Assembly: GCA_947632055.1 (NCBI GenBank)
Contig: CANRNS010000001.1
Location: 2,047 to 66,046 of the forward strand
Length of the DNA stretch: 64,000 bases
Source: an uncultured Akkermansia sp.
GTDB lineage: Bacteria; Verrucomicrobiota; Verrucomicrobiia; Verrucomicrobiales; Akkermansiaceae
Reading direction: 5' to 3'
Shown here: one piece after another, positions 11,027 to 35,444 of the stretch
How the letters are laid out: each line of letters opens with the position of its first letter
Position numbering within the stretch: position 1 is the stretch's first letter
Program-made: the position numbers and the translations under genes
Notes under the pieces: generated by a model
Database searches by the model: none
The model's input: only the letters and a program-made list of their open reading frames with translations
Told to the model about the DNA's origin: nothing

Positions 11027-11101
11027 ACGGTGAACGCGAACATACCCGCATCCGAAGAACTATAAGCTTCCTCCACGAGTCCGCGCTGCCCCGATTATCT
11101 C

Positions 11102-11279
11102 TTTTTGAAAGAGATATACTGAAGACAATGGAATTAACTTATTGCATGTTAGGAACTCATGATATTTTGCAATTCAAAGTATCGTTGGATACGACCGACA
11201 ATCTCTCTAAGCTCAAATGATTCTTAGTGATTTTTATTCAAAAATATGTGATTTTAGGCTTGATAATCTCTTTCAAAAA
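11102..11279. promoter_or_regulatory. Putative invertible promoter segment bounded by a 14-bp perfect inverted repeat
   Basis: tttttgaaagagat (11102-11115) and atctctttcaaaaa (11266-11279) flank an AT-rich segment immediately upstream of the polysaccharide operon. Confidence 0.65.
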
Positions 11280-11396
11280 ACGATGCTCGTATCTCCTGCA
11301 TCAGAGCCAGAGCAAACGCATTTTTTCATGCGTTTGCCCTATTTTGAGGCATTCCAGACTATACAATGGGGTGCAGGTATGGTATATTGGCAGAGT

Positions 11397-14300
11397 ATGG
11401 GAGTACGAAAAGTTTTATCAATTTGCTCGGTCCTGACTGCGCTGGCTATGGCTTGTAATGTGGCTTCAGCTGCGCAAAGCGGCGACTTTGCCGCGTTGAA
11501 GGCTCACTGGAGTTTTGACGAAGGTCGCGATTGGCACTACATGCCGATGCCGTATAAGTACGATGGAGTGAAAGCCACTGAACTGACCGGTAAAGCTGAT
11601 GATCTGCTACTGAATGAGAAGCAGAAGGCCGATAATGAGGCCTGGGTATCGGGTCGCCAGCGTTCCGGCATAGGTCCCGGGCACGTGCTCACCACGACGA
11701 AGGAACTGCCCTGTCTGAATGGATCGGTGACTTTCTCCTACTGGACCCGCCTGTACGGCGAACCGAACAAGCGCGGAGTTGTCGGCTCCACGCCCCCCAC
11801 GCCCTCCACCCAGTGGGGTGTGATGAATGCAAAAGGTCAAGTTGGCATGCGAGTCAATGGTAAAAACATAGTTTTTTCTCCCACACCCATTACGGATACG
11901 GATTGGCACCACGTGGTCTTTACTCGCGATGAGGAAACAGGCAAGGTTGTTCTGTACTTGGATGGTAAAGAAGTAGCCACCGGCGACACGCCCGCAGGCA
12001 AACTCCCCGGGCAATTTACCTCCATGACCACCAACAATGCAGCGTTGGACCAGATTCATATCTTCGACAAGCCAGTATCCGCTAAAACCGTTGCCGCACT
12101 GTACGACAACCATGCACCCCAGGTGTTCAACCAAACTCATTTGGTGGAGAAATCCAAACCTTCCGTAACGGGCAGCATTCTGCACCAATTTACGTACGAT
12201 GTCGATCAAGACAAGCTGCGCGTGGCCAGCTATTCCCAACCCAAGGGGGGCAAGGTGAAAAGCAACGGCGATGGCACCTTCACCTTCACTCCCGGCAAAT
12301 CCTTCAAGAAAAAAGGTAAAACATCTTTTGACGTCATTGTAACGGATGACCGCGGTGGCTACACCAAAGCTACCATGTACCTGCAGGACAGCCGCCACTT
12401 GGTTGCCCCACCCGTGCGTGAGTTCCGCTACTTCAGCGCTCTGCCGGAGATTCCCGCCTCCGACGGCAATCAGATGAAGCACCGCAATCCCATGGTCATC
12501 AGGATTCGTGGCAAAAAGCCAGATTTGCTTATTCAAGCAAATTCCCGCCTGTGGTACTGCATGAACGAATCCAAGCCCGGCAAAATTCTCTTCTCCAAAC
12601 CGCAAATGCTGCGTACCACCAAGCAGGCCGACTTTGAGACAGACGGCGCTGCCGTGCTTGAAGGCAACAAACTCATTATTCGCAAGCCTGATGGTACCTT
12701 GACTATGGCGACAGTTGCGGGTAAAGACAAACCAGCCTTGGAGATTGGTAACGCCATCACCGATACCACCGGAGCAGCCATGAATCTGCCGGTTCGCCAC
12801 TTTGTGCTGATCGACTACGACCACGATGGGACCCCGGATATTGTAGCCGGATTCAACGACGGCCTCTACTACTTCAAGGGCAAAGCAAAGTACAGCAAAA
12901 CTTCCAACGACACCAAGAAAATAGTCAGCATCAGCTTTGCCCCGGAGAAACAGCTGGTGCACCTGGGGCTTTACAACATTTCACCCGGCGTGGGCGATAT
13001 CAACAACGACGGCCGCACCGACCTCCTGTACGGCATTAACTGGGGCACGCTTCACGTGTGGATCAACGAACCCGCTAAAGCCACTATTTCCGACGGCGCC
13101 TTCATGGACCTAACTCTGGAGGATCCACCGAACGAGAAGTTTTTGCGCAACCTTAACGGCGCCCACCTGGCCATAGCAGATTTTGACAATGATGGAACGC
13201 CGGACATGATTCTTGGCGGCAGCGCCAACAGTGATCTGGCAAGCGCTTTGGGCGTGAATCTCGACACATTTGCAGGCAACCTGGCTCTCATCGAGAAAGA
13301 GCTCTACAAGGGCCACGAGAATGATCTTGGCAAGGTGCTTGAGGCTGACGGGCAGAAAGGCCTCAATCGCTACCGCCAACTGATGAGCAACTGGATTCGC
13401 TGGGCTGTGGCACAGAACACTCCCGCCAAGCGCCAAGCCGCCTGGGATATGCTCGCCGCTCACGTGAAGAAGTGGCCCTTCTTGCAGCGCCGCGTGCTTG
13501 AGGATGCGTGGGTAAAAAAGGAAAAGGGCGAAGTCACCAGCTATGGCAAGATGCACCACGTTCCCGGCATCTTTGCCATGAACTGGGTTGTGCTTCGCCG
13601 CTTGCTGCCGGATTCCGCCAATCACCGTAAGGCCGTAGCTGATGCCCTGGGCATAACCGGACTGGGTCGCGAAGCTTATTTAGACAAAGGCATGCCCTTG
13701 GCTGACAACAACCGCTGCACCGAGGGACAACTGCGCGCCGTATGGGATTTGCTGCGCTACCATGCCCCTATCCTCTTCCCGGATGACCACATCTCCATCG
13801 GACAGAACTACGAGGACGGTCGAGATGCGATGTGCTACGTCTTTACGTCCAACAAAAACACCTTCTGCTCGGATGTAGGTAACAACGTCGCCGAAATGAA
13901 CGGCGACATGGTTCAATTGACAGAGGAATGCTTCGGAACTAAGGGCGCTGCGAATGGCGACTACTTCACCTTTGTGCTTTCCCACGAGGTGTGCCACTCG
14001 CTGGATGCTTATGTGAGAGAGCGCACCGCTAATGACTTAAAACGCCGCTGGGGCGACCAGAATTTCTACGCTGCCACCAATGCCGGCACCAACTCCGACA
14101 TCGTCGCCAATGAAACAGGCTGGTGGGATCTCGACCTCACCAAGGCTCGCTTTAAGGAGCGCGGTCTGTGGGATGGGAATAATGAAACTTGGAATGACGC
14201 ATGGAAAGAGTATTGGCAGAAGTGCCCCTACCGCAACAAGGTCTTCATGCGCGGTGATATAGATTGGTTCCTCGGCTCTCAGCAAGAAACCTTTTCTACT

Positions 14301-14648: not shown

Positions 14649-14837
14649 CGGCTCATCCTGAGCGCCAGGGCAATTCCGCTCGGCTTTTGCTTCGCCTCTC
14701 GCGTGCAGTGCGCTCACCTTCCAAATCGTAATTCGTCATTCGCATATCATCAACTCTTTGCGTTGATCGACCTACCGTTAACTACCCATTAGGAATGCTT
14801 TTTTAGGGGACTGATGCGGCTTTGCCATTTCTTCTGC

Positions 14838-14865
14838 TTGACAAAGAAGTCAGATCTGCTAGGAT
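14838..14865 (+). promoter_or_regulatory. sigma70-like promoter of the sulfatase
   Basis: TTGACA-16-TAGGAT with an extended -10 TG; ends 7 nt before the ATG. Confidence 0.65.
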
Positions 14866-14872
14866 ACGGGCG

Positions 14873-16618: not shown

Positions 16619-16701
16619 AAGTTGACGGCAACGTCATCATGAGTGCCCCCAACGCAGTCTATTTGCTTGCCTCAGGTACGCTACGTGATAAGATGGTACG
16701 C

Positions 16702-17421: not shown

Positions 17422-17428
17422 CACGTTT

Positions 17429-17460
17429 TAAAAACGCCCGATCTCCGAAGAGACCGGGCG
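17429..17460 (-). terminator. Intrinsic terminator between convergent genes
   Basis: cgcccgatctc-cgaa-gagaccgggcg hairpin followed by a T-run on the minus strand. Confidence 0.7.
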
Positions 17461-17485
17461 AATGAAGTTTGGCGGGATGAAACGA

Positions 17486-19021: not shown

Positions 19022-19027
19022 GCGTCC

Positions 19028-19056
19028 AGTATACCACCTTTCTTCCAGGATGTGAA
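19028..19056 (-). promoter_or_regulatory. sigma70-like promoter of gpmI
   Basis: TTCACA-17-TATACT, ending 6 nt before the ATG. Confidence 0.6.
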
Positions 19057-20338: not shown

Positions 20339-20500
20339 GGTGATGTTCATTGCAGGGAGGGAGTCGTTGGCATCTCATAACGTGATCGATGGGACGACGT
20401 TATGCGCATGATTATGGGATAGAGCATCCGCCCCTCCTTGTAAATTACGAATCAAAAATTGTTGATAATGTACGCGTTGCCAAGTTTTTTCTGATGTGAC

Positions 20501-20526
20501 GCAAGCGCATGGGGGCATGCGCTTGC
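20501..20526. terminator. GC-rich hairpin downstream of the autotransporter
   Basis: Perfect 11-bp stem gcaagcgcatg-gggg-catgcgcttgc; no adjacent U-tract on the minus strand. Confidence 0.5.
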
Positions 20527-20549: not shown

Positions 20550-23500
20550 TCAGAAGGTGATCTTGTAGCCTGCGCTCGCGTTCACGCTCGTCCAGCCGCG
20601 ACGGTACTCGATCGAGGCGTCCATGAAGATGCTGCCGTTGCCGCTCCCCAGCGGGATGGTCAGCCCGGCTCCCGCTTCGATGCCCACCGCTCCCACTTCC
20701 GCGCTCTCCACCTTCGCCATCGTTCTGGACCCGATGATGCCGTTGGTTGCCTTGCCGGAGCGGTCTCCCGCATCGGCCTTGAGCAACAGGCGCGCCTCAA
20801 AGATCGAATCGCGTTTGAAGGCGTTTTCGCTCACCACGCACTGGAAGCGCGCTCCCATCCCGAAGGTCAGCACGCTCTGCCGCATGTCATCCACCTTCAA
20901 GCCCGCGTCGCTTCCCGTCTCCGTGTACCCCTTGATTCCCACGTGCCGGAACTCCACATTCACGATCGGTTGCAGCGCCGCCGTCCCCCTCTCATTCATC
21001 AGTTTGGTGTAGCCCAACTCGTACAGCGCGCCAAAGGCATAGCCATTCGTGCTGCCCTTCGTGCGGTAGCTGCCGCTGCCGTAGTTCACCGTGCGGTTCA
21101 GCCGCACATCCGCCAAGCCTCCACTCACCACGAAGGTGTGCATCCATGGCCCCTGCATCGTGCGCATGAAGGCCGACAGGTACATCGTGTCCAGGTGACC
21201 GGTGGCGGAATCGGCGGCGTCCGGCCTCAGACGTCCGTACATCGCCGTCAGCGCCACTCCAACGCTCGTCCGGTCCGACAAGTCCGCCCCCACGCCGAGG
21301 CTGCCGCCCCAGTTGTTGAGCGTGTAGCCGGGCAAATAGCCGTCCGCATCCAGCTTGTGGTAGCCGCCCTCCGCGTTGATCCAGGCATGCCAGGTGGGGA
21401 AGACGTCGTACTGGTCGTAGCGCGCCTCGCTGTTCACCGTGGTGGTGCGGTTGCGCATGGTGTTGAGTTGGCGGTGCAGGTCTTCCGCCAAGGCCGGGGT
21501 GAGAGTGGAGATGGACGCGCCCGCCACAGCCGTGAGCGTACGCTCCATTCCCGCGGCGTCCTTCCCGTCCATCATGCCGATGACGGCCATGCCCAGTTTC
21601 GCGTAGTCCGAGTTCGGATTGTTGAGCACATCCATGAAGGCGCCCCATTGCGTCTTATCCTTCAGGAAATCCCACAACATCTCCGCACCTGCCAATCCGT
21701 TCTTCCCGGCGTTGGGCATCACGCGCTCAAACTTGTTGTCCTCCGCCTTCTTCGTCGTCACGGTGATGTTACCCTTTTCATCCACTGTCACATCCGACAA
21801 ATCGTCAAAGACAAAGGCGCTGCCGCTCAGCGTCACTTTGTCTTTCAGAGTCTCTTGGCTCTGCTCTGTCGTGAAACCGAGAGTGAAGGATTGTACACGC
21901 TTGCCATCACCGTGCACCTCCAAACTGCCCGATTCGCCCACAGTGAGCTTCCCAGAAACAGGGGCCTCACTGCCCGTCTTGGAGGTGTCGACATCCATGC
22001 GCAACTTGCCGTTCACCGTCACATCGCCGAACGCAGGGGGAGCCTTCTCTTCAGAGCCCTCGGAGGTCTTCTCCGGAATCAGGTTCAGATTAAGCTGGGC
22101 GCCATCGTTTACAGTGAGTCCCCAGTTGGATCCACTTTCCGTGGTCACATTGTCGAGCGTGAAGGTCCCGCCTTCCACCACCAGCGTGCCGGCAGTGTCG
22201 GAAGGCTGGTTGCCGGAGCTCGCCAGCGTACCGGAGAAGGTGCCGCCACTTACAGTCAGCTTGCCGCCCTTCGCGCTCTTGAGCGTGCCGTTGCCATTCA
22301 GGGCGGAAAGGCTGCTGTTGCCCGCACCCACGTCCAGCACGGTGTCCTCTCCGTCCATGTTCACGCCTACGCCGTCCAACTGCGGCTTCTCCTCTTCTCC
22401 GCCTCCGGTGAGCGTGAGGCTGGCACTGTCCTCGAGGGTAACGGTTCCCGTGCCATCGCCGGTGAATTGAGTGGATGCTAGCGTATTCTTCCCCTCAAGC
22501 ACCAACTCAGCGCCCTCAGTTATCTCGATCTTATTGTCCTCGGTGTAACTACCCTCCTTTTCCTGAATTTGCCCTTTGATGGTGGTCTTGCCGTTTTGCA
22601 GTTTTAATCCACGCTGCTCGACGCCCTCGACAGCCCCCTCGTACGCGAACTCAAGGTTTTGCATGCTGTTGTTCGCGCCGCGTAGCACCAGCGCTCCTTG
22701 CTGGATGCTTGTGGTGCCATCTGTCAGTTGGTAGTTGTCGCCCACGGTCAGGGTGCCCTTGCCGGTCTTGGTGATGTCCACGCCGGGTCCTCCAGTAATC
22801 TTCCCCTTGAAGGAGGTGTCCTGCCCCCTCACGGTGGTGTCATCTGGTTCGGGCAGAGTTTCGCCTTCGTGACCATTCATGTTCACGTTCTCGTGATAGG
22901 TGTTGTCCAGTTTCACGTTCAGGCGGTTCTTCCCAATGGCATCTTCCTTTGCAGTATTATTGATGGCAAGCTCCGTGCCTTCAGTACCCAGCAGGTTGTT
23001 CACCTTGGCATCCTTAGCGGAAGAATCACTGCCATCCCAATTCAGGGTCAGCGTCTGTCCATGCAGTAACACGGTCGCGCGTTTGTCCAACAAGTCCGTG
23101 ACTTTGTCGCTGACCGGACTGTCGCCGCCTTCCTTCCCGTTCACGAGGTACAGGTCCTGCGTGGTGCCCGTCATGCTAATGCCGTCCTCCGTGTAGCTGA
23201 ACGAAGAGATGATGGTGGAAAGGATTTGCGCCACCGTGTCATCCATGCCGGCCAGAGGGTTTCCGTTGTCAGGATTATCGTTCCGATTCCATGATTTCTC
23301 GTCCCACGAGCCGTTTGCCAAAGCTGTCAGGGTAACGGTCCCCTCATTTTCATCGAACAAGTCAAAAATGTCTTCGCTGAAGGCAAGTTGAGTGTTGCTT
23401 CCGCGTTTCACCTTGGAATCACCTTTCTTCTCTTTCCATTCGATGAGAGCCGTACCCTCAGCATTCTCAGCTGAGAAGTGCAGCTCCAGCCCATGGCTCT

Positions 23501-26500
23501 CATCAACTGTGTAGGTGCCTGTCACGCCGGTGAGCTGTCCGTGCTCGTTGATGGTGATGCCGTCCAGATTGCTTGCAGCCATCCCGTTTACATCCACCAC
23601 ACCGCCCTGCGGCGCCGCTTCGCGCGGGGTGGCCTGCAGGGAATAAGCCCGTGCCGTTTGTGAAGCGCCCGATGCCAGTGCCGTACTCACGTATAAGCCA
23701 GCATTATCGTTGAGTTTCTCCTCGAACCCTTCACCCAATGTTACGTTGGAAAGCACAATGGTTCCGGTTCCGTCTACGTCTTTCGTGTACCCCGTTAAAT
23801 CAATGTGGCCTTTTCCCCCACCCAGCACACCGCCCAATACGATGGCTCCCTTGCTGGAATCGCTCGTGTCCAGCGTGACACCGCTGCCCAGTTCTCCGGC
23901 TATCACCACATCGCCCGTGCCAGTGGCCTTCACGGTGAGGGCCTCTCCTTTATTTCCCAAGCTGCCCGTCAGGGTCACTTGATCCTTGGCATCGACCTCG
24001 AGCGTGCCCGAACCGCTCACATTGGCTTGCACAATGCCGCTGGCCGCCTCTCCCGAGAGTGTCCATGTTGAATTCCCACTTTCTCCGGTGTTAAGTGTGC
24101 CCGTGAAGTTGTATATGTCTCCGGTGAGCGTGCCTTGGCTGCCCTCCCCAAGCGCCTCGAGTGTCAGAGTGCCGCCGTTTTCAGCAGTCTCCCCGCTTTG
24201 CAGGGTACCGGTAAGTGTCACTGTGCCGCTCAGCGTGGTCTCTCCATCCACGAGAACCGTGCCGGCTTTCACCGTGTTCCCGTCGTCGGAAGAGGAGGTA
24301 AGAGAGGCGCCGGCGAGCGTGAGCGTCGTGTTTCCATCGCCCAATCCATCGTCGCTGCCGATCGTGACATGACTGCCACTGGCCAACTCAATATCGCTCA
24401 CGTCGTTTTGACCGCTCAGGACGACGTTTCCGCTCTCCACGCTCAGGACGCCCTGACCGGTCACACCGCTCACTTCGAGCGAGCCCGTGGTAGATTTCAG
24501 TTTCAGCTCAGCGTGCTTGCTCACTTCAGCTCCGCCGGTGAGTTTCGAAGTCGAGCTGTCATTGCCTCCGTGCGCATCGAGCGTGAGCGTGCCGCCCTCC
24601 ACTTTCATGTGTCCGGCGTGCTCAATCTCACCTATTTGCTCCATCCAGGAGAGGGTGAAGTCGCCCGTCCCGGTCTTGGTCGTGCCGGTGTCCAGCGCCA
24701 TCTCGAGCCCATTGTTGTCGCTTACGTGGGTGCTTTCGTTTCCCCATGTCACGCCACCCTCACCGACTTTCTCGTCCACCTCCACTTGCAGCACGTTGCC
24801 GACGCTGTCCTCCGTCACCAGCCCGCTCACGTCCTGGCGGGCTCCTTCCTTGACGTAGCGTAGGGCGCTTCCCTCGCGCAACTCCAGCTGAGTACCTTCA
24901 GGCAGGGCTTCATCATGTCCCAGTCCCAAGGTGCCCTCTACGATGGCTTTCGGAATGCTTGTGTTCTTCAGGTTTAAGTCCAGTTCAGCCCCTTCTTCTA
25001 CGACCAACAGGCCTTCGCCCTGGATATCCAGTCCGCCGCCCGCATCGTTGCCTTCAAAGCTGTATTGACCGCCTTCGACAAAGACGTTGTTCGGAGTTAC
25101 GGGTCCCTGTACCTGCACCTGACTGCCCTTCGGATCAGCTCCTTCCTCCGTGAAATGCACGTCTTTGCCACCTGGAGCTACCGGCCCTTCGCCTTCTACA
25201 GACTCCCATTCCTTCTGATCATCATCGTTCCACGTCCCTCCACTGTTACCGTCCCACTTCACCCCCGTCTGGCCATCCCAGACAAGTCGACCTTCTTCAT
25301 CCAGATGGAGATCCGTGTACCTCCACGACGCGCCCTGTACGACTACATCAAAGTACTTCACCCACTCGGATTGCCATGAACTGCCCTCAACGTTGAAGAA
25401 GTCCACACTGGTTTCCCCGGATCCGCCTGTCAGCGCATCCAAATAATCCGATGTCAGGTTGAGCGTGATGGGCGCGGATCCTGCCGCCGTGCCGAATCCT
25501 CCCCCAAGCGCCAGGTGGGCGAGGTGAGCGGGATCCGCCCCTTCCGCGACATCCAGCGTGAGTCGGGCATTGCTGTCCCAGTTCACCTCCCCGGTTAGCG
25601 TCAATTTGCCTCCCACCAAGGTGAGCTGCGCGTTGCTGCCAACGCTGAGCGAGCTCGTAAGCTCCCCACCCGCGATGCGCAGGTGCGCACCCTCTCCCAG
25701 CTGCAAATTCGCAGCGATTCTACTTTCGCCATTTGTGACATTTGTCACGATCAGGGGTGTATCGCCTTCCACGACCAGGGTTCCACCGCTCAGCTCCAGC
25801 CTGCCGCCGTATTCACCACCGCCCATGGACTTCAAGGTCACTCCTTCGCCCACGCTGATGACGCCGCCACCACCGCTCAAGGTCCCGCTCACCGCGGCGG
25901 AACCGGCAGTGAGATGCACATGACCTTCACCTGCCGTGCTCAGCCCTCCAAGCGAGAGCTCTCCTTCCCCTTCCCAGACAAAGCTGCCCCCCTGCGCCTT
26001 TAAGCTGCCGCCAACGTTCATGCTCGTTGATGGTGGGCTTGATAGCGTACCATTGTCAGTGCCGCCAACGTGAAGCAGACCGCCCAGTACATCGACGTCA
26101 CCGCCCACGCTGATGTTGCCGGCGATGTATTGTTTATGTTCCTCGTCCGAACGTTCATTCATCGTGAGGTTGCCCCCCACCGTCAATGTCCCCCTGTAGG
26201 CGCGTTGTTGCTTCGTCCAAACATCGGCATTGGAGTTGAACGTCCACGTATCGTCGGCCACAATCTCCAAGTCCTCGACCATGATATTGCTGCTTCCTGT
26301 GCCATTGTGCGACCTCAGACCGCCTACGGTCAATTTGCCGTGCTGCTTCTCGAAGCTGCCGTTGCGCACCTCCAGGCAGGCATCCTCCAAGTTTGTATCT
26401 CCCTCGCCGGTGATTGTGGTCGTGGCGCCGTTGTTCACGAGTCGCAGGGCACAGCCCGTATCTGTGGGTGTCTCTCCGCTTCCCATCACGATATTGCCGA

Positions 26501-29500
26501 TGGTGTTCGTGCTTTCCAAGAGAATTTGCTTGCCCACCATTTCTACGTTCCCAAGTGCGTTTAGATTCTGCACTTTGTTCCAGCTGTCACCCGTCGTAGT
26601 TGTCCCCATGATGCTCATCTTTATCCCCTCCGCCACTTCCAGATTCGCTCCGTCGAAGGTTGTGCCACTTCCCTCGCTTAAGTCCACCACAAAGGCGCCG
26701 GTGCCGACCATCTCTGCTCTCGCATTGGTTCCAACGCTCAACAGATCATTTCTTCCCCGGAGTGTCAGCGTAGATCCTTCTTCCAGCGTGATAGTAACTT
26801 TATCCTCATTAATGACCTTCAAACTTCCAGTGAAGGTAGCTGTCTTCCCCGTTTCAAGGGTCAGCCAATCCTTCAGAGTTACCTCCAGCCCAAAGTTGCT
26901 TTCCATCGCTTGCAAATCCATGGTTACTACAGTCAGTCCGTTGCCTGAACCTTCAGCAGCCAGGAAATTCACTGTACCGCCCATGGTGATCAGCTCACTA
27001 GATTGCACAGCGCCGCTCACCTTGATTGTTGCGTCTTCCTCTTCATCGCTATTAAAGGTGGTGGCGGCGCCGTTCGTGAATGTCGCTTCGCTATCCCATA
27101 CAATGCTGCCGCTACTGCTCTCAGCTGCCCAAGTGAGGTCGCTTTCCTCGTGCAGGCTACCCGTCCAAACTACATCATTCAGTTTGGTGAGAGTTAGAAT
27201 GCCGGAGGCGTCGAGTGACGGTGTGTAGCCAATAATGAAGTCAAAAGTCAGATTGCTATTGCTGTATAATGAGGCAAGCGTTGTTGCCGCAGCGCCTCCG
27301 AAGAGGTGAAGCTTCCAGCTTTGAGAACCGTCATCTCCTGTTGTGACATCGCTCAGGTGTTCCTGAACCCACTCTTCCACTCCGGTGAGGGTTAGTGTAA
27401 GCGTATGGCCATTGTTTGTGATTCCCCCGAGTGTTAATGCGGCAGGATCTTCCACTCCCACGCCCGCTTCCCGCACGTCCAACTGCATCCTGGCATTGCC
27501 ATTCAACGTGATGGAGCCCAGAGTGTTTGTTCCCGTCCCCTGAATGATGAATTGGCTCGATCCGTTCAAGGTGAGAGCCATCCCTGATGCATTCACATTC
27601 CCCAGCACTGTTAGCACATGTCCGCCATTATAGTTTACCGTGCTGCTGCCGGTGGCAGTCAACGATTTAATCGTTGCGCTTTGCATGATACTGAGAGTTC
27701 CCCCATTCAAGACGATGCCGTAGCTGTGCATATCCAATGCCGTTGCGGTGGATAATTGGAGAGTAGTCCCTTGGGACATCTCAATTTCTCCGCCCTCGTT
27801 TCCAATCATTTGGAAATTTTCATCAATTTTCAAGATGGCATTCCCACTTCCTTTGATCACAAGCTTGTGACCATGTCCATCAAACGAACCGGCATAACCT
27901 CCTCTACCGGCAAAATGCAGTGTAACATTTTCCACGTAAATAGTGGCATCATTCGCCAACTCCACATCCCACTTCATCCAATCTTGAGCTGTCACATGGA
28001 GCGCTCCTGTGTTTTCGTCATTGCCATGCCCCTCAAGGATGAGTTTTCCATGCTGGGTATAATAGCCTTGGTAGTCAAATACTTGAGAAACCGTTGTTTT
28101 CAGGGTGGCTCCGGACGCTATCTTCAATTCGCGCAGGAAGCTCATGCCCTTGCCTATGTTTGTAGCATTAGCGGCAAGAATCAAGGTGGAGTCACTTGCC
28201 ACCTCGAGTCGTCCAATGCCCTCATGAGTGTTATCACGCTGCAGATTGGTGTCACCCGCTGCGAAAAGAGCGGCAAAGAGGTTGTTGTTTCCATTGACGG
28301 TCACGGTGTCCGCATCCAGCACCACGGTGCCATCTCCGGAGAGCGTGGTGCCGGTCCAGTGGCTCGCTGTAGTGTCAGATACGCTAATTGTGCCGTTTTC
28401 TGCCACGATCATATTGCCCAGATTTTTCGTGCCTTCGCCACCCAGCGTAAGCTTTCCCGTGATTTTTCCTCCGTTGAGGGCAATGTCGCCTGCGCTTTCA
28501 AAAGTGACGCTTGCGTCGTCTTGCACTGTAAACGTCCCGGTGGCAGTTAACGAGGAACCCTGTTCTCCGGTGAATTGCCACTTACCATCGCGCACTTCGA
28601 TGTCATGAGGCCTCACCTCCCCGGAGATGGCGATGGAATGGTTTTCGTCTGTTGCATCAGTGAAGATGATGCTGTCACCTGCCACGAAGCTGCTTTCATT
28701 CCCGTACGGATCGAGCCAATGATCATCCTGAAGCTCATTCTGCCACGTTGTTACCCCGCTGCTCCATGTTAGCGTCTCTACACGAGAGACAAAATGCACG
28801 ACCCCATCTTCGTCCACGGTGAGTTCGCGTCTCCCTTCGGTGTAATCACTTGCGAGTCTGGCTTTCAAAAACTCCAGCGCTTCCTCTTTATTCCAACCGT
28901 CGGCAGTGGTATCAAAGAGCTTGTAATCCCAATCACTGTATGACGTTAGCCCCGTTAGGGAGAGTTCAAGGTCTGTGATATCTTTCAGCGATGTCAGAGC
29001 CCCATCCGTCAACTTGAGTTCCCCACCATGAATCTGTAGCGTCCATTTTCCCTCTTCTCCTGACAGCTGTATTTCTCCGCCCCCGACTTCCAACACACCG
29101 CCCACTCCGAGAGTCCAGGTTTGTCCGCGCGTGGCAGTCATGCCGCTCAACGCTTTCACGGTGCCGTTGCCCACCGTCAGCGACCCCGTCGACACCGTTC
29201 CGCCCAGCTCCAATGTCCCTTCGGTGACGGTCGCATCTCCTGTCACCGTCAACCCGCCGTTGGCTGTAAGTTTGCTTCCGCTGCCAGCCAACGCAAGGTG
29301 ATGGGCCGTCAACAGACCGCTCACCGTCAGTGTACCCGTGTTGCCCGCCTCCGAACCACCTATGGCAAGACCGCTTTCAAAGCCAACACCCACCGTTAGC
29401 GCACCGTTGATGGTGCCCGTCGCTCCCCAGCCAACCTGCATGCCATCGTTTAAAAGCTCACCACTTGAGCCAGTGTAGCCGTATACCGAGAGATCGCCGT

Positions 29501-32500
29501 ACACCGTCAAAGTAGACTTGCCTTCCCCGGAAGTTCCAATCACCGTCACTCCACTGGCTCGATGCGTCACATCGCTTACATCGGACTTGCCAAGCGTCAG
29601 GGTTCCGACGGAGCTACTCGTTTCATTGTGTTCACCAACCGTTATTTGCCCGCTACCGCAAACCTCTCCCACACCTGGCGCTTCTGTTCCTTTTTTGTTA
29701 CCGCACAGATACCCTTCAATCGTCACATTGGCACCGTCCGCCACCGTCAACTTGGCATAATTGTTTAGAGTGGCATTCCCCGTCACAGTTAACGTTGCTC
29801 CTTCACCAGCCACGCCAATGTTCCTAGTTACTGTCAAGAGCCCAGCCTGCAATGTGCCCCCCGTGACAGTCAACCCCGTCACAGTTAAATCAGTGCCGTC
29901 TCCACCGACATAGAGCTCATGGGTAAAGCTCAGCTCACCTGCCTGCAAGTCGAGGCTCTTCAGAAGCGTTCGTTCAGTAGTCGTAAACTCCTGGGTGCCC
30001 TCTCCTTTTTTCACCATGCTCATGCTCTGATTGTTGACGACTCCCGAGAATGTCTGCTGTTCCTCACTGCCGACATCCAGCACCAACTTACCGTCGCCGT
30101 TGAAGGAGCCATTGCTGCCGGAGAGCCCTGCAAAGGTGTAGCCATCTGTTGCCGTCGTACCGACACTCAAGGTGCCTCCGTTCATAGTGAGGAGACCGCC
30201 TGTCTGTCCATTCTCATAATCCAAGGTTAGAGTACCACTGGTCGAGACTGTGATGTCGGACGCCCTCCCAAAGCTGAAGCCGTTCCCCAAAGTCAGACTC
30301 CCGCTCGTCACGGTCAGGGTCGTCCCCGAGAAGGCTCCCGTGTAGCTGAAAGCCGTCCCATTCCCCGCGTACTCAAAGTTTGTCTCAATGGCGCCTGCGA
30401 AACTTCCCCCATTCCCGGTCAATTTCAATAATCCGGAGCCGGTGATGGAGCCAAATTGATTTTGCATGCCTCCGAGCGTGTTGGTAACCGTCAGGACAGA
30501 GGTCTCCCCCAGGGTAACCTCACCACTCCCATCGATGTTGAGAATGTACGCCGTAACTGTTCCTGTCGTGGAAAGCGTGCCGAGAACGTTCAACGTGTTG
30601 CCGACATTTGCCCTATCTCCCAGCAGGAACGTTGCTCCGGTACTCACAACAATCGTTCCATTGTGTGTCGGTGCAATCGTTCCGGTGTACGCTTTCGTGC
30701 CCTCACCGGCCAAGGTCATTGTAATGCCACCCCCAAAGCTCACGCCACCCGCACCCGACAGGGTTTGAAACGTGGCATTTTTTTCCATTTGGAGCGTTGA
30801 GCCTTCTTGCAGCTGCATTTCCACATTGGCAAATGTATCGCCAGCATCCGTATTCATGAACAACTTGGCTCCCCGGTTCAGGAGGAAAATACCGCTTCCC
30901 GCCTCTCCTTCTGCCATCTCATACCCAGCATAAAATCGGAAATTTACATTATTCGCTCCGGCAGCAAAGGTCAGTGTGTGTCTATTGAGCGATAGTTTCC
31001 CCGGCGTATTATCGCCGCCAGCACCACCATCGAAAGAAAAGTAGTTATTTCCCGTGACTTCGGTGTAGAGAGTCGCGTCGCCCGTCAGACTCACGTTCCA
31101 TTTTACCCATACCGCTGTCGTGCCGCTTGTCAGCGCGCCATGACCGTCTGTCGTTCCGCTGCCTTCCAATTCGATGGTGCCAACTTTTGAGTAGTTGCCT
31201 TGTAGTGAAGAGTTATCAAACACGTTGGCTCCCAATTGCAGAGTTGCTCCATCCTTCACGGTGAGCTTCTGAATGAGACTCAGTCCTTTGCCAACGTCGT
31301 TGTTATTAAGAGCCAGTGTCGTGCCTCTCGCAATCTTGAACCGCCCGATACCCGCGTGAGAGTCATCACGCTGGATAGCGGTATCGCCCGCCGCGAAGAG
31401 GTTAGCGAAAAGGTTAGCGTTCTGATCGACTGTCACGGTGCCATTCGCATCCAGCACCACGGTGCCATCTCCGGAAAGCGTGGTGTCCTTCCAGTTGCTT
31501 GCTGTGCCATCCGTGATAGTAAGGGTGCCATTAATAGTCGCTGTGCCGAGGCTCTTTGCCCCCGTAAAGTTCAGCTTCAAGTTGCCGGAAACTTCCGCTT
31601 CCCCTACCTTGAAAGAAGTCAATTCACTGAAAGTGGCTGTCGCACCTGCTGCCACCCTCAATCTGCCGACGGTATGAACTGAACTCCCTTCTCCGGAAAA
31701 TGTCCAATCTCCCGACTCGAAAGCGATGTTGCCAGGTTCCACCGTGCCAATAATCGACACGTCTGTGTCGACCGAGCTATATTCACCCGTTGTGGTGAAG
31801 GTGACAGCATCGCCATTGGAGAAATAGGTGCCACCTTCACTGCCCGACATATTCCACATGGTATCCTCGCCACCCGTTTGCGCCTGCCACGTGTTGCTAT
31901 CCGAAGAGCCGTTCCATGTGAGCTCTGTAATCGTTCCCTGAATGGTCAGAACACCTTGGGCACTCAGCTCATAATGCTGGGTGCGGCTCAGGGGTCTCAA
32001 ATGCGCGGCAAACGCATTCCAGAGAGACTGATTCTCCGCCAGCAACTTCGCGGCCAGTTCGCTGCTCACCAGCTGCAAGCCCGTGCCATCCCAACCGATC
32101 AATTCCAGCTCGCCTACAAGGGATGACAAGGTCGTTGTGCTAAGGTTTAGCAGGGTATGTCCTCCACCGGTGAGGTAGCTGGAAACGTCCACGGAGAAAA
32201 GATTTTCCAGATTGATATTTGTCAGGTCACTCTCGTTTGCCGCGCTCAAATCCAAGGTGCCACCCGTGAGCTGAATCTTAAGCCCCGTATTCGTGAATGA
32301 AAAGTCATGATCCGCAACACTACCGAGCTCTAGCGTTCCTCCGCTCACCGTGAACCCTGTGCTCACATTCACCTCACCGCCCAGCGTCAGGCTTCCCTGG
32401 GTCAGAGTCACGGAACCCGCCTCCAGCCCGCCTTTCAGGATGACCGTACCGTCGGTGATCTCCAACTGATTATCATCTTGAATTTTGCAAGACCCCATAA

Positions 32501-34976
32501 CCGTGAGAGTTCCACCGTTCCTCACGACCACGTTCTCCGTACCATTACTGTTCAGTCCATGCAAATTCCCGCTGATCGTCACGGAACTCCCCTTGCCGCA
32601 AATTTCCAATGCATTGGCTCCTCCACCTACTGTAACACCGTACAAATTCGCGTCCCCGGTAATGTTGACCACAGAACCGGGGCCTTCCCCTTCAGTCGAA
32701 GCTTGCACCAAGAGACCTCTCGCCATTAACGCGTCACCAGAGGCTAGTCCTTCCCCTGTAATGGTAAGATTCCCAATGCTATCTTCATCTCCTATTTTCA
32801 GGACGCCAGCATGCGCATTGTTACCTTGTCCGCGGATGTAGCCAACCGTCAGGTTCCCTCCATCGGTGATGCTCAGATTGCCTCCTTGGTCATCGTTCAA
32901 GGAAAGACGGCTTTGGACTGTCATTGAACTGTTAGCACCGCTAATTTCGAGAGATCCAACCCACGCATTGGTACCGACTTGGAGCGTGCCTCCCCCGGTC
33001 ACCTTCACTTTGTTGCTGAGGTTGGGATTATTATCTCTGCCGGAATTTACTCCGTCTCCGTGCAGATTTTTCTTAATATCGAGAAGCCCAGCATCCACAA
33101 TGAGAGCACAACCATCATCGTAAACGCCATAAACATTTACATCGCCGTACACAGTCACCGTTGACTGGGTGCTTTCACCCTTGCCTTGTACTTTCAGACC
33201 TCGTGTTTTGAGAACTTCTCCTGCTTCTCCTAGTGATGCCTCGCTTCCCACAGTCAATGTGCCAATGCTATCACTTCCTTCTCCCACCAGAATACGACCG
33301 GCATGACCACGGTTGCTGTTTTGTGCGTTTTTTACCCCCTGCAAAGTAGCGACAGTCAAGCTTCCGCCATGATTGATGGTGAGAGTTGTGCCATCAGTTG
33401 GGTCATATAATCCCATCGAACCGGATATCGTTACATTGCCGCCATTGACGGTAAGGGAATGCCTAAAGTCCCAATCATGGTCAAATTGAGCGTGGGCATT
33501 TGTATTCACAGCGAAGTTTGACCAAGTCTCTCCGTAGTCGGCTTCGAACTTTAGCGTGCCACCCTCCACTGTGGTGGATCTCGTATCAAGATGGCTAGTC
33601 GTAAGGATTTGCGTGCCCGTTCCCCGTTTCACGAGGTCGACCTTTTTCCCGGCGTTGCCGACCTGATCTGAAAACTGCCCCGCGAAGGAGGGCATTTCTT
33701 CGTCATCATCTCCGCTGTAGTCGATGACGAGTTTAGCCATGTCTCCTCCTCCCTCGTCCAATTTAATTACTGAGTCTCCATTTCCTCCCGTCAGCCCTCT
33801 CACCACGTAGGTGGCGTCGGCAACATCTGCTGCTCCGGTGAAGTACAAGTTGCCGTTTACCACTAACACTGTGTTGGACAAGCTGCCGGTCTCCCCGGTA
33901 GTAGAGTAGCCGAGGACGAGGGTAGAGCCGCTGTCCACCTCGAGTTCGTGGATGTTGTTGTTAATTCTGGTCGCGTAGCTCACATCGCTGAGTGTAAGCT
34001 TGTGCGTCCCGGTCAGCTTTACTTTTTGGATGCCCTCTTGATAAGTTACCGTGGGGAAAAGACGCGTGAACCAATTGTCGGTGTCGGCTGAGAGCGTCTT
34101 ATCTGAGGAGAGTTCCAATTCCACGGTACCTTGACCGTGTACAAAGGCGTTTCCATTGATATTGGTATTATCCGCGCCTACCCTGAGCGTAGCACCTCTA
34201 GCAATGGAGATGCCTCCCTCCCCGGAGATAGCGTCCCCTTGCTCCAACAAATTGCCTGTCAACTCTAGCAATCCACTGCCGGTAAACTGCAGCACACCTT
34301 TCTGGATATCAACAAGCTTTGTTTTGACAGTCACATAATTTCCGAAAGTTACTGTTCCGGCGCGTAAAGTCAGCTCCTCAGCAATGGCGAGAATGTTTGT
34401 GGTATTGCCTTGCCCGGTAAAGTTGTAATTGGTCGTATCAGCACCTCCTGCCGCCCCCACCATGAGTTCCTGCATCGACACCGTCCCATCCGGTAAAGAA
34501 CCACTGACCGCTACATTGACGGCGTCCTTGTCTTGACCCGCGCTTCCCGCCAGCACGACCTGGTATTCTGCCAGGGAGTCGGCGTCTCCAGACCAGCCAT
34601 CACTGCTTCTAGCCGATGAAGAGAGGGTAAAATCGCCCTGTTGTGTCCACGTCAAAGCTAGATCCCCGCTTGCAATAGGCATCACGCCATTCGTGGCGGC
34701 AAGCAGCATGACGTCCTCCTCGCTGTTGGCGGCGAGGGGAGCATGTTCTTCTTCATCTTCACTCTCTGTCCCCAGAGCAAGCTCGTCACCGGCGGGGGCA
34801 GCCAGCGGGGGGACTTCGTCTGCCTGGGCGAAGGTCGCCGTGCTCCACAGCAGGGAGAAGGCGCCCAAGAGGGCCGTCCCGGATGCCACGGTGCGCCGCA
34901 GCGCGCGGCGTCCGGCGAGGGTTGCAAGGCAAGCCAACAAAGCCTTGCGGAGACCAGTAGGTAAGTGGAGTTTCAT
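20550..34976 (-). CDS. Giant (~4808 aa) autotransporter adhesin with a beta-helical passenger
   Basis: MKLHLPTGLRKALLACL extended signal region (start at 34976). G/T/S/N-rich passenger with PATR-like motifs (LVKRGTGTQILT, MVKKGEGTQEFT, TTKTGTGDFTLS, ITKTGKGTLTVG). C-terminal barrel from AWINAEGG, ending in GYKITF. Confidence 0.93.
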   Translation of the reverse strand: MKLHLPTGLRKALLACLATLAGRRALRRTVASGTALLGAFSLLWSTATFAQADEVPPLAAPAGDELALGTESEDEEEHAPLAANSEEDVMLLAATNGVMPIASGDLALTWTQQGDFTLSSSARSSDGWSGDADSLAEYQVVLAGSAGQDKDAVNVAVSGSLPDGTVSMQELMVGAAGGADTTNYNFTGQGNTTNILAIAEELTLRAGTVTFGNYVTVKTKLVDIQKGVLQFTGSGLLELTGNLLEQGDAISGEGGISIARGATLRVGADNTNINGNAFVHGQGTVELELSSDKTLSADTDNWFTRLFPTVTYQEGIQKVKLTGTHKLTLSDVSYATRINNNIHELEVDSGSTLVLGYSTTGETGSLSNTVLVVNGNLYFTGAADVADATYVVRGLTGGNGDSVIKLDEGGGDMAKLVIDYSGDDDEEMPSFAGQFSDQVGNAGKKVDLVKRGTGTQILTTSHLDTRSTTVEGGTLKFEADYGETWSNFAVNTNAHAQFDHDWDFRHSLTVNGGNVTISGSMGLYDPTDGTTLTINHGGSLTVATLQGVKNAQNSNRGHAGRILVGEGSDSIGTLTVGSEASLGEAGEVLKTRGLKVQGKGESTQSTVTVYGDVNVYGVYDDGCALIVDAGLLDIKKNLHGDGVNSGRDNNPNLSNKVKVTGGGTLQVGTNAWVGSLEISGANSSMTVQSRLSLNDDQGGNLSITDGGNLTVGYIRGQGNNAHAGVLKIGDEDSIGNLTITGEGLASGDALMARGLLVQASTEGEGPGSVVNITGDANLYGVTVGGGANALEICGKGSSVTISGNLHGLNSNGTENVVVRNGGTLTVMGSCKIQDDNQLEITDGTVILKGGLEAGSVTLTQGSLTLGGEVNVSTGFTVSGGTLELGSVADHDFSFTNTGLKIQLTGGTLDLSAANESDLTNINLENLFSVDVSSYLTGGGHTLLNLSTTTLSSLVGELELIGWDGTGLQLVSSELAAKLLAENQSLWNAFAAHLRPLSRTQHYELSAQGVLTIQGTITELTWNGSSDSNTWQAQTGGEDTMWNMSGSEGGTYFSNGDAVTFTTTGEYSSVDTDVSIIGTVEPGNIAFESGDWTFSGEGSSVHTVGRLRVAAGATATFSELTSFKVGEAEVSGNLKLNFTGAKSLGTATINGTLTITDGTASNWKDTTLSGDGTVVLDANGTVTVDQNANLFANLFAAGDTAIQRDDSHAGIGRFKIARGTTLALNNNDVGKGLSLIQKLTVKDGATLQLGANVFDNSSLQGNYSKVGTIELEGSGTTDGHGALTSGTTAVWVKWNVSLTGDATLYTEVTGNNYFSFDGGAGGDNTPGKLSLNRHTLTFAAGANNVNFRFYAGYEMAEGEAGSGIFLLNRGAKLFMNTDAGDTFANVEMQLQEGSTLQMEKNATFQTLSGAGGVSFGGGITMTLAGEGTKAYTGTIAPTHNGTIVVSTGATFLLGDRANVGNTLNVLGTLSTTGTVTAYILNIDGSGEVTLGETSVLTVTNTLGGMQNQFGSITGSGLLKLTGNGGSFAGAIETNFEYAGNGTAFSYTGAFSGTTLTVTSGSLTLGNGFSFGRASDITVSTSGTLTLDYENGQTGGLLTMNGGTLSVGTTATDGYTFAGLSGSNGSFNGDGKLVLDVGSEEQQTFSGVVNNQSMSMVKKGEGTQEFTTTERTLLKSLDLQAGELSFTHELYVGGDGTDLTVTGLTVTGGTLQAGLLTVTRNIGVAGEGATLTVTGNATLNNYAKLTVADGANVTIEGYLCGNKKGTEAPGVGEVCGSGQITVGEHNETSSSVGTLTLGKSDVSDVTHRASGVTVIGTSGEGKSTLTVYGDLSVYGYTGSSGELLNDGMQVGWGATGTINGALTVGVGFESGLAIGGSEAGNTGTLTVSGLLTAHHLALAGSGSKLTANGGLTVTGDATVTEGTLELGGTVSTGSLTVGNGTVKALSGMTATRGQTWTLGVGGVLEVGGGEIQLSGEEGKWTLQIHGGELKLTDGALTSLKDITDLELSLTGLTSYSDWDYKLFDTTADGWNKEEALEFLKARLASDYTEGRRELTVDEDGVVHFVSRVETLTWSSGVTTWQNELQDDHWLDPYGNESSFVAGDSIIFTDATDENHSIAISGEVRPHDIEVRDGKWQFTGEQGSSLTATGTFTVQDDASVTFESAGDIALNGGKITGKLTLGGEGTKNLGNMIVAENGTISVSDTTASHWTGTTLSGDGTVVLDADTVTVNGNNNLFAALFAAGDTNLQRDNTHEGIGRLEVASDSTLILAANATNIGKGMSFLRELKIASGATLKTTVSQVFDYQGYYTQHGKLILEGHGNDENTGALHVTAQDWMKWDVELANDATIYVENVTLHFAGRGGYAGSFDGHGHKLVIKGSGNAILKIDENFQMIGNEGGEIEMSQGTTLQLSTATALDMHSYGIVLNGGTLSIMQSATIKSLTATGSSTVNYNGGHVLTVLGNVNASGMALTLNGSSQFIIQGTGTNTLGSITLNGNARMQLDVREAGVGVEDPAALTLGGITNNGHTLTLTLTGVEEWVQEHLSDVTTGDDGSQSWKLHLFGGAAATTLASLYSNSNLTFDFIIGYTPSLDASGILTLTKLNDVVWTGSLHEESDLTWAAESSSGSIVWDSEATFTNGAATTFNSDEEEDATIKVSGAVQSSELITMGGTVNFLAAEGSGNGLTVVTMDLQAMESNFGLEVTLKDWLTLETGKTATFTGSLKVINEDKVTITLEEGSTLTLRGRNDLLSVGTNARAEMVGTGAFVVDLSEGSGTTFDGANLEVAEGIKMSIMGTTTTGDSWNKVQNLNALGNVEMVGKQILLESTNTIGNIVMGSGETPTDTGCALRLVNNGATTTITGEGDTNLEDACLEVRNGSFEKQHGKLTVGGLRSHNGTGSSNIMVEDLEIVADDTWTFNSNADVWTKQQRAYRGTLTVGGNLTMNERSDEEHKQYIAGNISVGGDVDVLGGLLHVGGTDNGTLSSPPSTSMNVGGSLKAQGGSFVWEGEGELSLGGLSTAGEGHVHLTAGSAAVSGTLSGGGGVISVGEGVTLKSMGGGEYGGRLELSGGTLVVEGDTPLIVTNVTNGESRIAANLQLGEGAHLRIAGGELTSSLSVGSNAQLTLVGGKLTLTGEVNWDSNARLTLDVAEGADPAHLAHLALGGGFGTAAGSAPITLNLTSDYLDALTGGSGETSVDFFNVEGSSWQSEWVKYFDVVVQGASWRYTDLHLDEEGRLVWDGQTGVKWDGNSGGTWNDDDQKEWESVEGEGPVAPGGKDVHFTEEGADPKGSQVQVQGPVTPNNVFVEGGQYSFEGNDAGGGLDIQGEGLLVVEEGAELDLNLKNTSIPKAIVEGTLGLGHDEALPEGTQLELREGSALRYVKEGARQDVSGLVTEDSVGNVLQVEVDEKVGEGGVTWGNESTHVSDNNGLEMALDTGTTKTGTGDFTLSWMEQIGEIEHAGHMKVEGGTLTLDAHGGNDSSTSKLTGGAEVSKHAELKLKSTTGSLEVSGVTGQGVLSVESGNVVLSGQNDVSDIELASGSHVTIGSDDGLGDGNTTLTLAGASLTSSSDDGNTVKAGTVLVDGETTLSGTVTLTGTLQSGETAENGGTLTLEALGEGSQGTLTGDIYNFTGTLNTGESGNSTWTLSGEAASGIVQANVSGSGTLEVDAKDQVTLTGSLGNKGEALTVKATGTGDVVIAGELGSGVTLDTSDSSKGAIVLGGVLGGGKGHIDLTGYTKDVDGTGTIVLSNVTLGEGFEEKLNDNAGLYVSTALASGASQTARAYSLQATPREAAPQGGVVDVNGMAASNLDGITINEHGQLTGVTGTYTVDESHGLELHFSAENAEGTALIEWKEKKGDSKVKRGSNTQLAFSEDIFDLFDENEGTVTLTALANGSWDEKSWNRNDNPDNGNPLAGMDDTVAQILSTIISSFSYTEDGISMTGTTQDLYLVNGKEGGDSPVSDKVTDLLDKRATVLLHGQTLTLNWDGSDSSAKDAKVNNLLGTEGTELAINNTAKEDAIGKNRLNVKLDNTYHENVNMNGHEGETLPEPDDTTVRGQDTSFKGKITGGPGVDITKTGKGTLTVGDNYQLTDGTTSIQQGALVLRGANNSMQNLEFAYEGAVEGVEQRGLKLQNGKTTIKGQIQEKEGSYTEDNKIEITEGAELVLEGKNTLASTQFTGDGTGTVTLEDSASLTLTGGGEEEKPQLDGVGVNMDGEDTVLDVGAGNSSLSALNGNGTLKSAKGGKLTVSGGTFSGTLASSGNQPSDTAGTLVVEGGTFTLDNVTTESGSNWGLTVNDGAQLNLNLIPEKTSEGSEEKAPPAFGDVTVNGKLRMDVDTSKTGSEAPVSGKLTVGESGSLEVHGDGKRVQSFTLGFTTEQSQETLKDKVTLSGSAFVFDDLSDVTVDEKGNITVTTKKAEDNKFERVMPNAGKNGLAGAEMLWDFLKDKTQWGAFMDVLNNPNSDYAKLGMAVIGMMDGKDAAGMERTLTAVAGASISTLTPALAEDLHRQLNTMRNRTTTVNSEARYDQYDVFPTWHAWINAEGGYHKLDADGYLPGYTLNNWGGSLGVGADLSDRTSVGVALTAMYGRLRPDAADSATGHLDTMYLSAFMRTMQGPWMHTFVVSGGLADVRLNRTVNYGSGSYRTKGSTNGYAFGALYELGYTKLMNERGTAALQPIVNVEFRHVGIKGYTETGSDAGLKVDDMRQSVLTFGMGARFQCVVSENAFKRDSIFEARLLLKADAGDRSGKATNGIIGSRTMAKVESAEVGAVGIEAGAGLTIPLGSGNGSIFMDASIEYRRGWTSVNASAGYKITF

Positions 34977-35050
34977 GATGCTGACGATTGGTGATGGAAG
35001 CAGACCTAAGGCGCGCAACACGTACGCGCGAGGACCCGCTTGCATGGTGC

Positions 35051-35375
35051 AGTATATCTCTTTTCAAAAGAGATATACTCGTCACGAAACTATAAATTAT
35101 TTATTATCAAATAATTATATATTAAAAAGTGCTTTCGTTTTTTCAAGGAGCGAAGAAGCATTTTTTTCTTGTGTCATACTTCATTTTCAAGGTCTTTGAG
35201 CTTGCAAGCGAGGCATCTCTTTTGAAAAGAGGTAGACTTTCTTTCGTTTCTCTTATTGATTGATCGGCAACGTTTAGAAAGTATCAATTTCTTTCGGGTG
35301 CGTCAACAGAAGATCCTGAGAAATTTTTTCAAAATTTTTGAAAAAGAAACTGGACATTGCTTTTGAAAAGAGATA
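35051..35375. promoter_or_regulatory. Putative invertible promoter region with three related sites (A 35051-35079, B 35215-35238, C 35360-35375)
   Basis: A/B form a perfect 17-bp IR (35058-35074 vs 35215-35231). A/C form a perfect 16-bp IR (35055-35070 vs 35360-35375). AT-rich interior directly upstream of the autotransporter. Confidence 0.7.
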
Positions 35376-35444
35376 CACACTCCGTAAAACAATTAGAGAG
35401 AGGGAGGGAAAGAGAGAATCATGACGTAGCAGGGAACAATGTGC

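Follow-up and report, generated by a model that had tools for sequence, protein, structure and literature searches.

Akkermansia is a much-studied gut commensal in which the capsule and surface proteins are known to be phase-variable. The invertible promoter switches (invertons) of Akkermansia muciniphila are associated with the motif CGGATT..AATCCG (Jiang et al. 2019, as quoted in PMC13343947), and one of them, the cps1 inverton, flips in culture, in mice and in people (PMC13343947). Akkermansia invertons have also been described as 'inverton group 138' of PMC11892184, with a published example at 2092093-2092109-2092267-2092283. In Bacteroides fragilis, the global invertase Mpi is described as a serine recombinase (PMC11602134). 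Here, we analysed a 64,000-nucleotide stretch of DNA from an uncultured Akkermansia sp. (the window, to which unprefixed positions refer), which belongs to contig C1 of a 2.12 Mb genome assembled in 151 contigs and 87% complete; other contigs of this genome, and the loci on them, are likewise denoted by C and a number. The window contains five short palindromic sites, two beside a glycan operon and three ahead of a giant autotransporter gene. These are, with a probability that we put at roughly 85%, the recombination sites of two Akkermansia-type invertible-promoter switches, within a genome-wide set of 37.

Site family and core matching

Searching the window for ATCTCTTT-N3-AAAGAGAT with up to three mismatches recovered matches at 11097, 11266, 35056, 35215 and 35356 and no further ones, against a mean of 0.22 expected by chance; five were reached in 0 of 100 shuffles. 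These are the five shared-arm sites of the preliminary description, and the identical inner arm that it had noted at both gene-proximal sites, GAGATATACT, is present at 11111-11120 and 35070-35079, with an additional minus-strand copy at 35051-35060 (0.06 expected). The sequence also bears out that the cores differ between the loci, that each locus has a single core, and that the site nearest the gene has the opposite orientation to the other site or sites of its locus: the glycan locus carries TTTTTGAAA / TTTCAAAAA, and the autotransporter locus TTTTCAAAA / TTTTGAAAA / TTTTGAAAA.

At the glycan locus, the gene-proximal site occupies 11097-11115 (core TTG; extended 27 bp site 11093-11119) and is separated by a putatively invertible segment of 150 bp (11116-11265) from its distal partner at 11266-11284, which has the core CAA and an outer arm, AAAACGAT, that is a conserved variant. 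At the autotransporter locus, site 1 (35056-35074, core TCA) forms part of a 29 bp palindrome that is perfect save for its central base. A 140 bp segment A (35075-35214), homologues of which are found in both orientations among paralogues, lies between this and site 2 (35215-35233, core TGA), followed by a 122 bp segment B (35234-35355) and site 3 (35356-35374, core TGA), the inner arm of which is the variant ATTGCTTT. Sites 2 and 3 are direct repeats of each other; site 1 has the inverse orientation.

The genome scan for spaced pairs of sites that the preliminary description had proposed identified 86 sites of this motif, hereafter class 1, in 37 clustered loci of fixed spacing ahead of surface genes; this is the opposite of the single, unpaired and randomly oriented sites that it had named as the contrary outcome. 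The loci comprise 26 pairs with a start-to-start spacing of 165-170 bp, ten triplets spaced by 155-159 plus 126-141 bp, and one quadruplet consisting of a triplet and a pair with one common site. Seven further sites with no more than two mismatches are unclustered, four of them at contig ends. The exact paired-site pattern was found in 62 stretches of a species-representative collection, every one of which comes from a rabbit-gut ('Lapin') metagenome bin. Of these, 59 bear the label uncultured Akkermansia sp., and the other three are probably mis-binned. Similarly, the sequencing runs containing the window are rabbit or gut metagenomes. Among 101 sampled genomes of the genus, nine, including that of the window, have class 1 at 14 or more sites, and the arm variants ATCTCATT and ATCTCTCT occur in other genomes of the genus.

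When the 74 terminal sites were aligned in the outside-to-inside direction, their profile defined an extended class-1 site of 27 bp, in which the 8-nt arm ATCTCTTT is accompanied by G at -4 (71 of 74), T at position 9 (72 of 74) and C at +23 (66 of 74). The arms are 12 bp each, G-N2-Y-ATCTCTTT and its mirror image, around a 3-nt core that constitutes the sole asymmetry of the site. In every one of the 36 simple loci, the two outer sites have cores that are exactly reverse-complementary, the combinations being TCA/TGA (15 loci), TCG/CGA (10), TTG/CAA (7), TTA/TAA (2), TGG/CCA (1) and CCC/GGG (1). Paralogous loci with segments approximately 92-95% identical have differing cores, altered at both sites together. 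For instance, among near-identical paralogues C24 has TCG/CGA and C25 TTG/CAA; likewise C32, C38 and C102 have TCG, C100a and C100b have TTG, and C46 and C48 have TCA. These paired changes are the pattern expected if strand exchange requires identical central regions, as is the case for the tyrosine recombinases Cre, FLP and lambda Int, and provide natural covariation evidence for the place of strand exchange. The invariant TT and AA flanking the core would give a 7 bp overlap, and a tyrosine recombinase acting in trans may bind the arms and exchange strands across TT-N3-AA; recombination would then occur only between sites of identical core, with the core setting its direction.

The preliminary description had further suggested that the cores are locus-specific, and that this prevents rearrangements between loci. 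The matching within loci and the paired changes among paralogues do support a role of the core in the choice of partner, but specificity to individual loci was overstated, as there are about seven core types for 37 loci. Loci with the same core share a contig on C100 (3.5 kb apart), C12 (27 kb) and C3 (49 kb). In the first of these cases, two TTG/CAA switches (C100:1571-1756 and C100:5093-5278) stand either side of one 1108-aa autotransporter gene, so the cores afford no insulation of neighbouring loci there. Owing to the few core types and the same-core loci on shared contigs, core diversity is no general safeguard, though it could block the 24 kb exchange between the two loci of the window.

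Proposed promoter layout and evidence of inversion

In all 37 loci, a -35-like box (TTGACA, TGGACA, TTGATA, TGTACA or TTGACT) lies at one end of the movable DNA in fixed register with the repeat, and is preceded by a T/A-rich tract, again in 37 of 37; most often (TGGACA, and TTGACA at most loci), the box overlaps the site by one nucleotide, its final A being base 1. One outer flank contains a TAnnnT hexamer (TATACT, TAAACT, TACACT, TAGACT, TATGCT or GATAAT) exactly 16-17 nt from the -35 position, and this is the flank on the side adjoining the outward-reading gene. The opposite flank is usually poor as a -10 box (TGCGCA, TGAGCA, GATGCT), which shows that sites can persist without a TAnnnT box beside them. 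From this layout, we infer that one half of a promoter moves with the invertible segment, namely the A/T-rich UP-like tract together with the -35 box bordering on the repeat, that the repeat itself serves as the 16-17 nt spacer, and that the -10 box is situated in the fixed flank beside the regulated gene, such that inversion would assemble or break a sigma-70-type promoter. The two halves are joined (ON) in the assembly at approximately 15 loci and apart (OFF) at approximately 22, and the same arrangement of -35 box, repeat and -10 box is found in the switches of a second class, described below, in the closed genome of a relative.

Judged by this layout, both switches in the window are assembled OFF. 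At the glycan locus, a fixed candidate -10 hexamer, GATAAT (11094-11099, minus strand), overlaps the last 3 nt of the gene-proximal site and faces the operon led by a family GT2 glycosyltransferase gene (start codon at 11026); this flank recurs at the paralogous loci C7a, C24 and C25. The -35 box TTGATA (11260-11265) is at the right end of the segment, which also has the T-rich UP-like tract, and as assembled points away from the glycan operon, towards a terminator-like hairpin with a T-run (11312-11337, plus strand) immediately past the distal site. Inversion would create TTGATA-N16-GATAAT reading into the operon, and in the assembled state the hairpin would stop transcription from the parked half-promoter before it reached a lectin/FG-GAP gene (probable start 11397). 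The counterpart of GATAAT at the autotransporter locus is TATACT (35051-35056, minus strand), which faces the autotransporter gene; the paralogous locus C39 has TATGCT at this position. Segment B ends in GAAAAAGAAAC and has its -35 box TGGACA at 35351-35356, the last A of which is base 1 of site 3; as assembled, the box points to the side of a PutA-like gene, and recombination between sites 1 and 3 would create TGGACA-N17-TATACT facing the autotransporter. No RNA family in Rfam matched the region 10800-35700.

Comparisons between genomes and between paralogous loci reveal inversions with breakpoints inside the sites. The three-site block C8:55-390 is inverted, at 97.6% identity, relative to its counterpart L031 in another Lapin Akkermansia bin, and the sequences on either side (96% and 91%) are collinear. 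In this segment, the variant half-site ATCGCATTT stays with the -35 end, and its travelling with the segment end indicates that the crossover takes place in the centre of the site. The flanks of the window's autotransporter locus are kept by 0 of 100 genomes of the genus, hence its orientation can be compared through paralogues only. Relative to its paralogue C39, the 5' region of the autotransporter gene and the site are inverted (92%) and the invertible block is collinear; the same pattern distinguishes the relative's paralogues L162 and L161. Between C66 and C101, the unit of site 1, segment A and site 2 is inverted at 88% and the rest of the locus is collinear, which implies that segment A also flips alone. 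As comparisons of assembled sequences, these show past inversion at the sites on evolutionary timescales, and they uphold the proposal of the preliminary description that recombination sites fit the pattern better than a plain operator.

Such events are in keeping with the structure of the three-site loci, at which the core of site 2 has the orientation of that of site 3, segment A is always between inverted sites, and the promoter-bearing segment B is always between direct sites. Recombination between sites 1 and 3 would move B from one flank to the other, and that between sites 1 and 2 (or 2 and 3 after a 1x3 event) would flip A only, giving four arrangements in total; both kinds of event, 1x3 and inversion of A alone, are represented in the comparisons above. 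Segment A holds the conserved motifs TTTATTATCAA and TTGTGTCATAC. Consensus matches to a possible internal promoter in this segment, like TTGTGTCATAC, vary between loci, and no promoter is consistently present. At C125:511-529, a perfect class-1 site stands alone, with no partner for 260 bp and with the flank conserved on the OFF side; it may have been left behind by excision between direct sites.

The genes reading outward from class-1 switches encode glycosyltransferases (GT2, GT8, GT10 and GT92), sugar-modifying enzymes (an epimerase, a DegT aminotransferase, AT3-SGNH and AlgX-like acyltransferases, GNATs, a hexapeptide transferase, a cytidylyltransferase and an ATP-grasp enzyme), a GH16 protein and, at eight or more loci, autotransporters or giant proteins. 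One switch, C5:4141-4324, is assembled OFF 12 nt upstream of a gene for the TssB/VipA type VI secretion sheath (PF05591; C5:4336-4914). The other flank is often occupied by housekeeping genes, such as those for malic enzyme, a PutA-like protein and an aldo-keto reductase. Three-site loci mostly precede genes for giant secreted proteins. That of the window precedes a minus-strand open reading frame (ORF) of 4831 aa (20550-35045) with a C-terminal PF03797 beta-domain, the true start of which is probably the ATG at 34976, where a signal region beginning MKLHLPTGLRKALL common to its paralogues is encoded. The depth of metagenome contigs peaks 10- to 30-fold at 34936-34977, which corresponds to this MKLHLPTGLRKALL signal-sequence region; the region is common to many autotransporter paralogues, both within and between strains. 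The three-site switch on C8 is followed by an uninterrupted ORF of 13,941 codons (C8:424-42246), with no Pfam match in its first 1000 residues.

Two other elements accompany the switches. The first, G[CA]GCA-N2-CTGTGGAACA, adjoins the 'OFF-side' site at ten or more loci (for example C4:10383-10400, C38:2231-2248, C47:586-603 and C125:530-547; reversed at C39, C66 and C101) and is not consistently the start of an ORF; it could be a site for an accessory protein or the -35 box of an alternative sigma factor. The second comprises palindromes of the type TTGAT-N1-5-ATCAA, some with GATC, found in many segments 25-40 nt from the end without the -35 box, as at 35256-35275 in the window and in C28, C39, C7c and C8. 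An accessory or bending protein could bind to these palindromes.

Candidate recombinases and a second site class

No match to PF00589, PF00239 or PF01548 was found on contig C1, in agreement with the preliminary description, which had reported no recombinase gene in the window and had attributed control of the cell-surface loci to a trans-acting invertase. Nor does any of the 37 loci have a recombinase within reach on its contig, which argues that the sites are served in trans; together with the surface-gene context, this supports the proposal of a putative trans-acting invertase. The listing of orphan recombinases that had been suggested returned six intact non-Xer tyrosine recombinase paralogues. 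The genome has ten tyrosine-recombinase genes in all, of which two are XerC- and XerD-like, and neither serine (PF00239) nor IS110/Piv-type (PF01548) recombinases were detected in it. The six paralogues form one family ending ...LQxEMGHRxxxLLRTRY with the catalytic R..K..HxxR..H..Y residues intact, and three of them share 86-93% identity. As their flanks are not repeated, they do not belong to a mobile element. No member of the family is located near a class-1 switch, and no class-1 half-sites were found near recombinase genes.

Of 101 genomes sampled from the genus, 100 contain the family, in 1-20 copies. Serine recombinases were absent from four of five complete relatives rich in sites of the second class, and the recombinases of the closed genome G066 are limited to XerC, XerD, a tRNA-linked integrase and one member of the family. 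These two observations make the six-member family the best candidate for the invertase, narrowing the enzyme, as judged from gene content, to one tyrosine-recombinase family with a single member in one closed genome. Identity profiles do not assign the class-1 enzyme, as all four recombinase types fall off alike with phylogenetic distance. One genome, G027, has 19 class-1 sites and no close gene of the C20 type in its assembly.

Class-2 sites, ACGNATT-N3-AATNCGT, occur in the same genome as pairs 154-172 bp apart with matched cores at C20:6133-6321, C26:917-1104, C38:5781-5951 and C2:32736-32903, the distal site of the last having a degenerate outer arm. A single site at C130:106-122 has its partner beyond the contig start, and C98:211-227 is possibly the other half. 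Their motif is the one published for A. muciniphila (CGGATT..AATCCG, PMC13343947). Three of these loci, on C20, C26 and C130, end approximately 10 nt before the start codons of three near-identical recombinase genes. A class-2 switch, in each case a unit of 170-172 bp, likewise ends approximately 10 nt ahead of the orthologues of these genes in the genomes of at least six other species, with the matched cores CAT/ATG, TCA/TGA and AGT/ACT; a seventh orthologue, at a contig start, has the gene-proximal site only. A complete promoter-like element, T[TG]G[CT]AA-N17/18-TATTTT, within the class-2 segment points at the recombinase gene, and the distal fixed flank has a strong -10 box facing a divergent gene for a small secreted protein. 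A lone perfect palindrome, ACGGATT-GCT-AATCCGT, is found approximately 150 nt upstream of the recombinase gene on C71.

This arrangement suggests that the invertases may themselves be phase-variable. We tentatively raise the possibility, which we regard as somewhat less probable than its converse, of a two-tier stochastic hierarchy in which the invertase genes are placed behind class-2 invertible promoters; a class-2 flip would turn on or lock the enzyme flipping the 37 class-1 switches. Were this so, a cell lineage would alternate between 'shuffling' and 'frozen' surface states, and the genus would evolve new site classes by enzyme duplication. Large closed genomes of the genus have 24-36 class-2 sites and class-1-rich genomes 3-6, and class-2 sites in relatives have the same geometry of arms and 3-nt core at a spacing of approximately 166-171 bp. 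This distribution implies that the arms turn over while the geometry is kept: the recognition arms appear replaceable wholesale within the genus, with geometry, core logic and promoter layout fixed.

Alternative explanations and related systems

Several points weigh against reading the sites as those of active promoter switches. Conservation of the -10-like flank may partly reflect recombinase binding, as this flank extends over positions under constraint in the extended site itself (C at +23). The inversions were compared only between species or paralogues, and do not prove present-day rates of switching. Contigs spanning the window loci do so in the reference orientation only, with no strand-changing joints, though Logan contigs drop minor variants and paralogues confound such comparisons. 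Three rabbit or gut metagenome contig sets likewise have the window region in the reference orientation; in one raw-read run, 30 of 38 reads were only 90-95% alike, the strain apparently not being in the run, and loose ends and short 'skips' at the repeats had sides of less than 30 nt and derived from paralogues, such that we take these data as evidence neither for inversion nor against it. Furthermore, identity profiles across genomes do not single out the class-1 enzyme among the six paralogues, and with the genome 87% complete, a recombinase could be missing from the assembly.

That incompleteness would allow the switches to be flipped by an absent serine invertase of the Hin/Mpi type, for which the B. 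fragilis enzyme provides a precedent. We consider this very unlikely, as PF00239 was found neither here nor in four of five complete relatives with 24-36 class-2 sites of identical geometry, and an odd 3-nt core between fixed arms suits a 7 bp tyrosine overlap over a 2 bp serine crossover. The uniform orientation of the window locus could alternatively mean that the switches are evolutionary relics, now fixed as promoters or non-promoters. There is slightly less to recommend this, given that arms and cores are near-perfect at 86 sites with the cores co-varying, near-identical paralogues include both ON and OFF states, recombinase paralogues with intact catalytic residues persist, and homologous switches of A. 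muciniphila flip in culture, mice and people (PMC13343947).

The two remaining explanations are highly improbable. Near-perfect 8-3-8 palindromes over promoters, with no inverted reads at the window loci, might be operators at which a dimeric transcription factor co-regulates surface loci with no rearrangement. However, an operator leaves unexplained the pairs and triplets at a fixed spacing of approximately 167 bp, the reverse-complementary cores that change jointly within loci, and the blocks inverted exactly between sites, with half-site exchange, in relatives and paralogues. Alternatively, dozens of short elements of similar length with terminal inverted repeats resemble miniature inverted-repeat transposable elements (MITEs), units of approximately 186 bp with 19 bp terminal repeats scattered by a transposase, and contig ends are modestly enriched nearby (11 of 302 within 300 bp of a class-1 site, against 4.7 expected). 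Yet target-site duplications do not exceed random expectation, segment interiors are unrelated between loci save for the promoter end, the units are always in promoter position with -35 and -10 boxes in exact register, inversion occurs in place, and no transposase family is linked to them.

As invertible-promoter switches, the window loci have counterparts among several known systems. Like the Mpi system of B. fragilis, also a gut commensal, they would involve one trans-acting enzyme and many dispersed invertible promoters at surface-polysaccharide loci; Mpi differs in being a serine recombinase and in having the promoter wholly within the segment, whereas here the promoter is split across the repeat. 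Similarly, E. coli fimS inverts a short promoter segment controlling a surface structure by means of tyrosine recombinases (FimB/FimE), but is a single locus with adjacent recombinase genes and its promoter inside a 314 bp segment, compared with 37 loci served in trans. Heterospecific lox/FRT sites (Cre, FLP) and those of lambda Int share the palindromic arms around an asymmetric centre that must be identical between partners and that sets direction, as the covariation of the cores implies here; by contrast, the sites described here are natural, with a 3-nt variable centre in a presumed 7 bp overlap and approximately seven core types per genome. The shufflon of plasmid R64 likewise has more than two sites per locus, several arrangements and a tyrosine recombinase (Rci), though it reshuffles pilV coding segments rather than non-coding promoter segments. 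In a literature search that did not cover Jiang et al. 2019, no paper was found that linked an Akkermansia recombinase to inversion or named the flipping enzyme, or that used 'split promoter' for an inversion switch.

The closest counterparts are the invertons of A. muciniphila, which also consist of segments of approximately 150-170 bp between short inverted repeats, number dozens per genome (PMC13343947, PMC11892184), and are found beside capsule or glycan and autotransporter genes. The window-type switches share with them a repeat-flanked intergenic segment of approximately 150-170 bp that carries a promoter element (-35 box and UP-like tract) upstream of surface genes. They differ in their arms, ACGGATT in A. 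muciniphila and the unrelated ATCTCTTT here; lacking CGGATT..AATCCG, they represent a variant outside that published motif group, which survives in this lineage at approximately 5-6 loci, mostly ahead of recombinase genes. The three-site arrays before giant proteins are a further difference. To the known Akkermansia invertons, the present analysis adds arms of a different sequence, arrays of three sites, evidence from covariation on where crossover occurs, and a candidate enzyme family with switches of its own.

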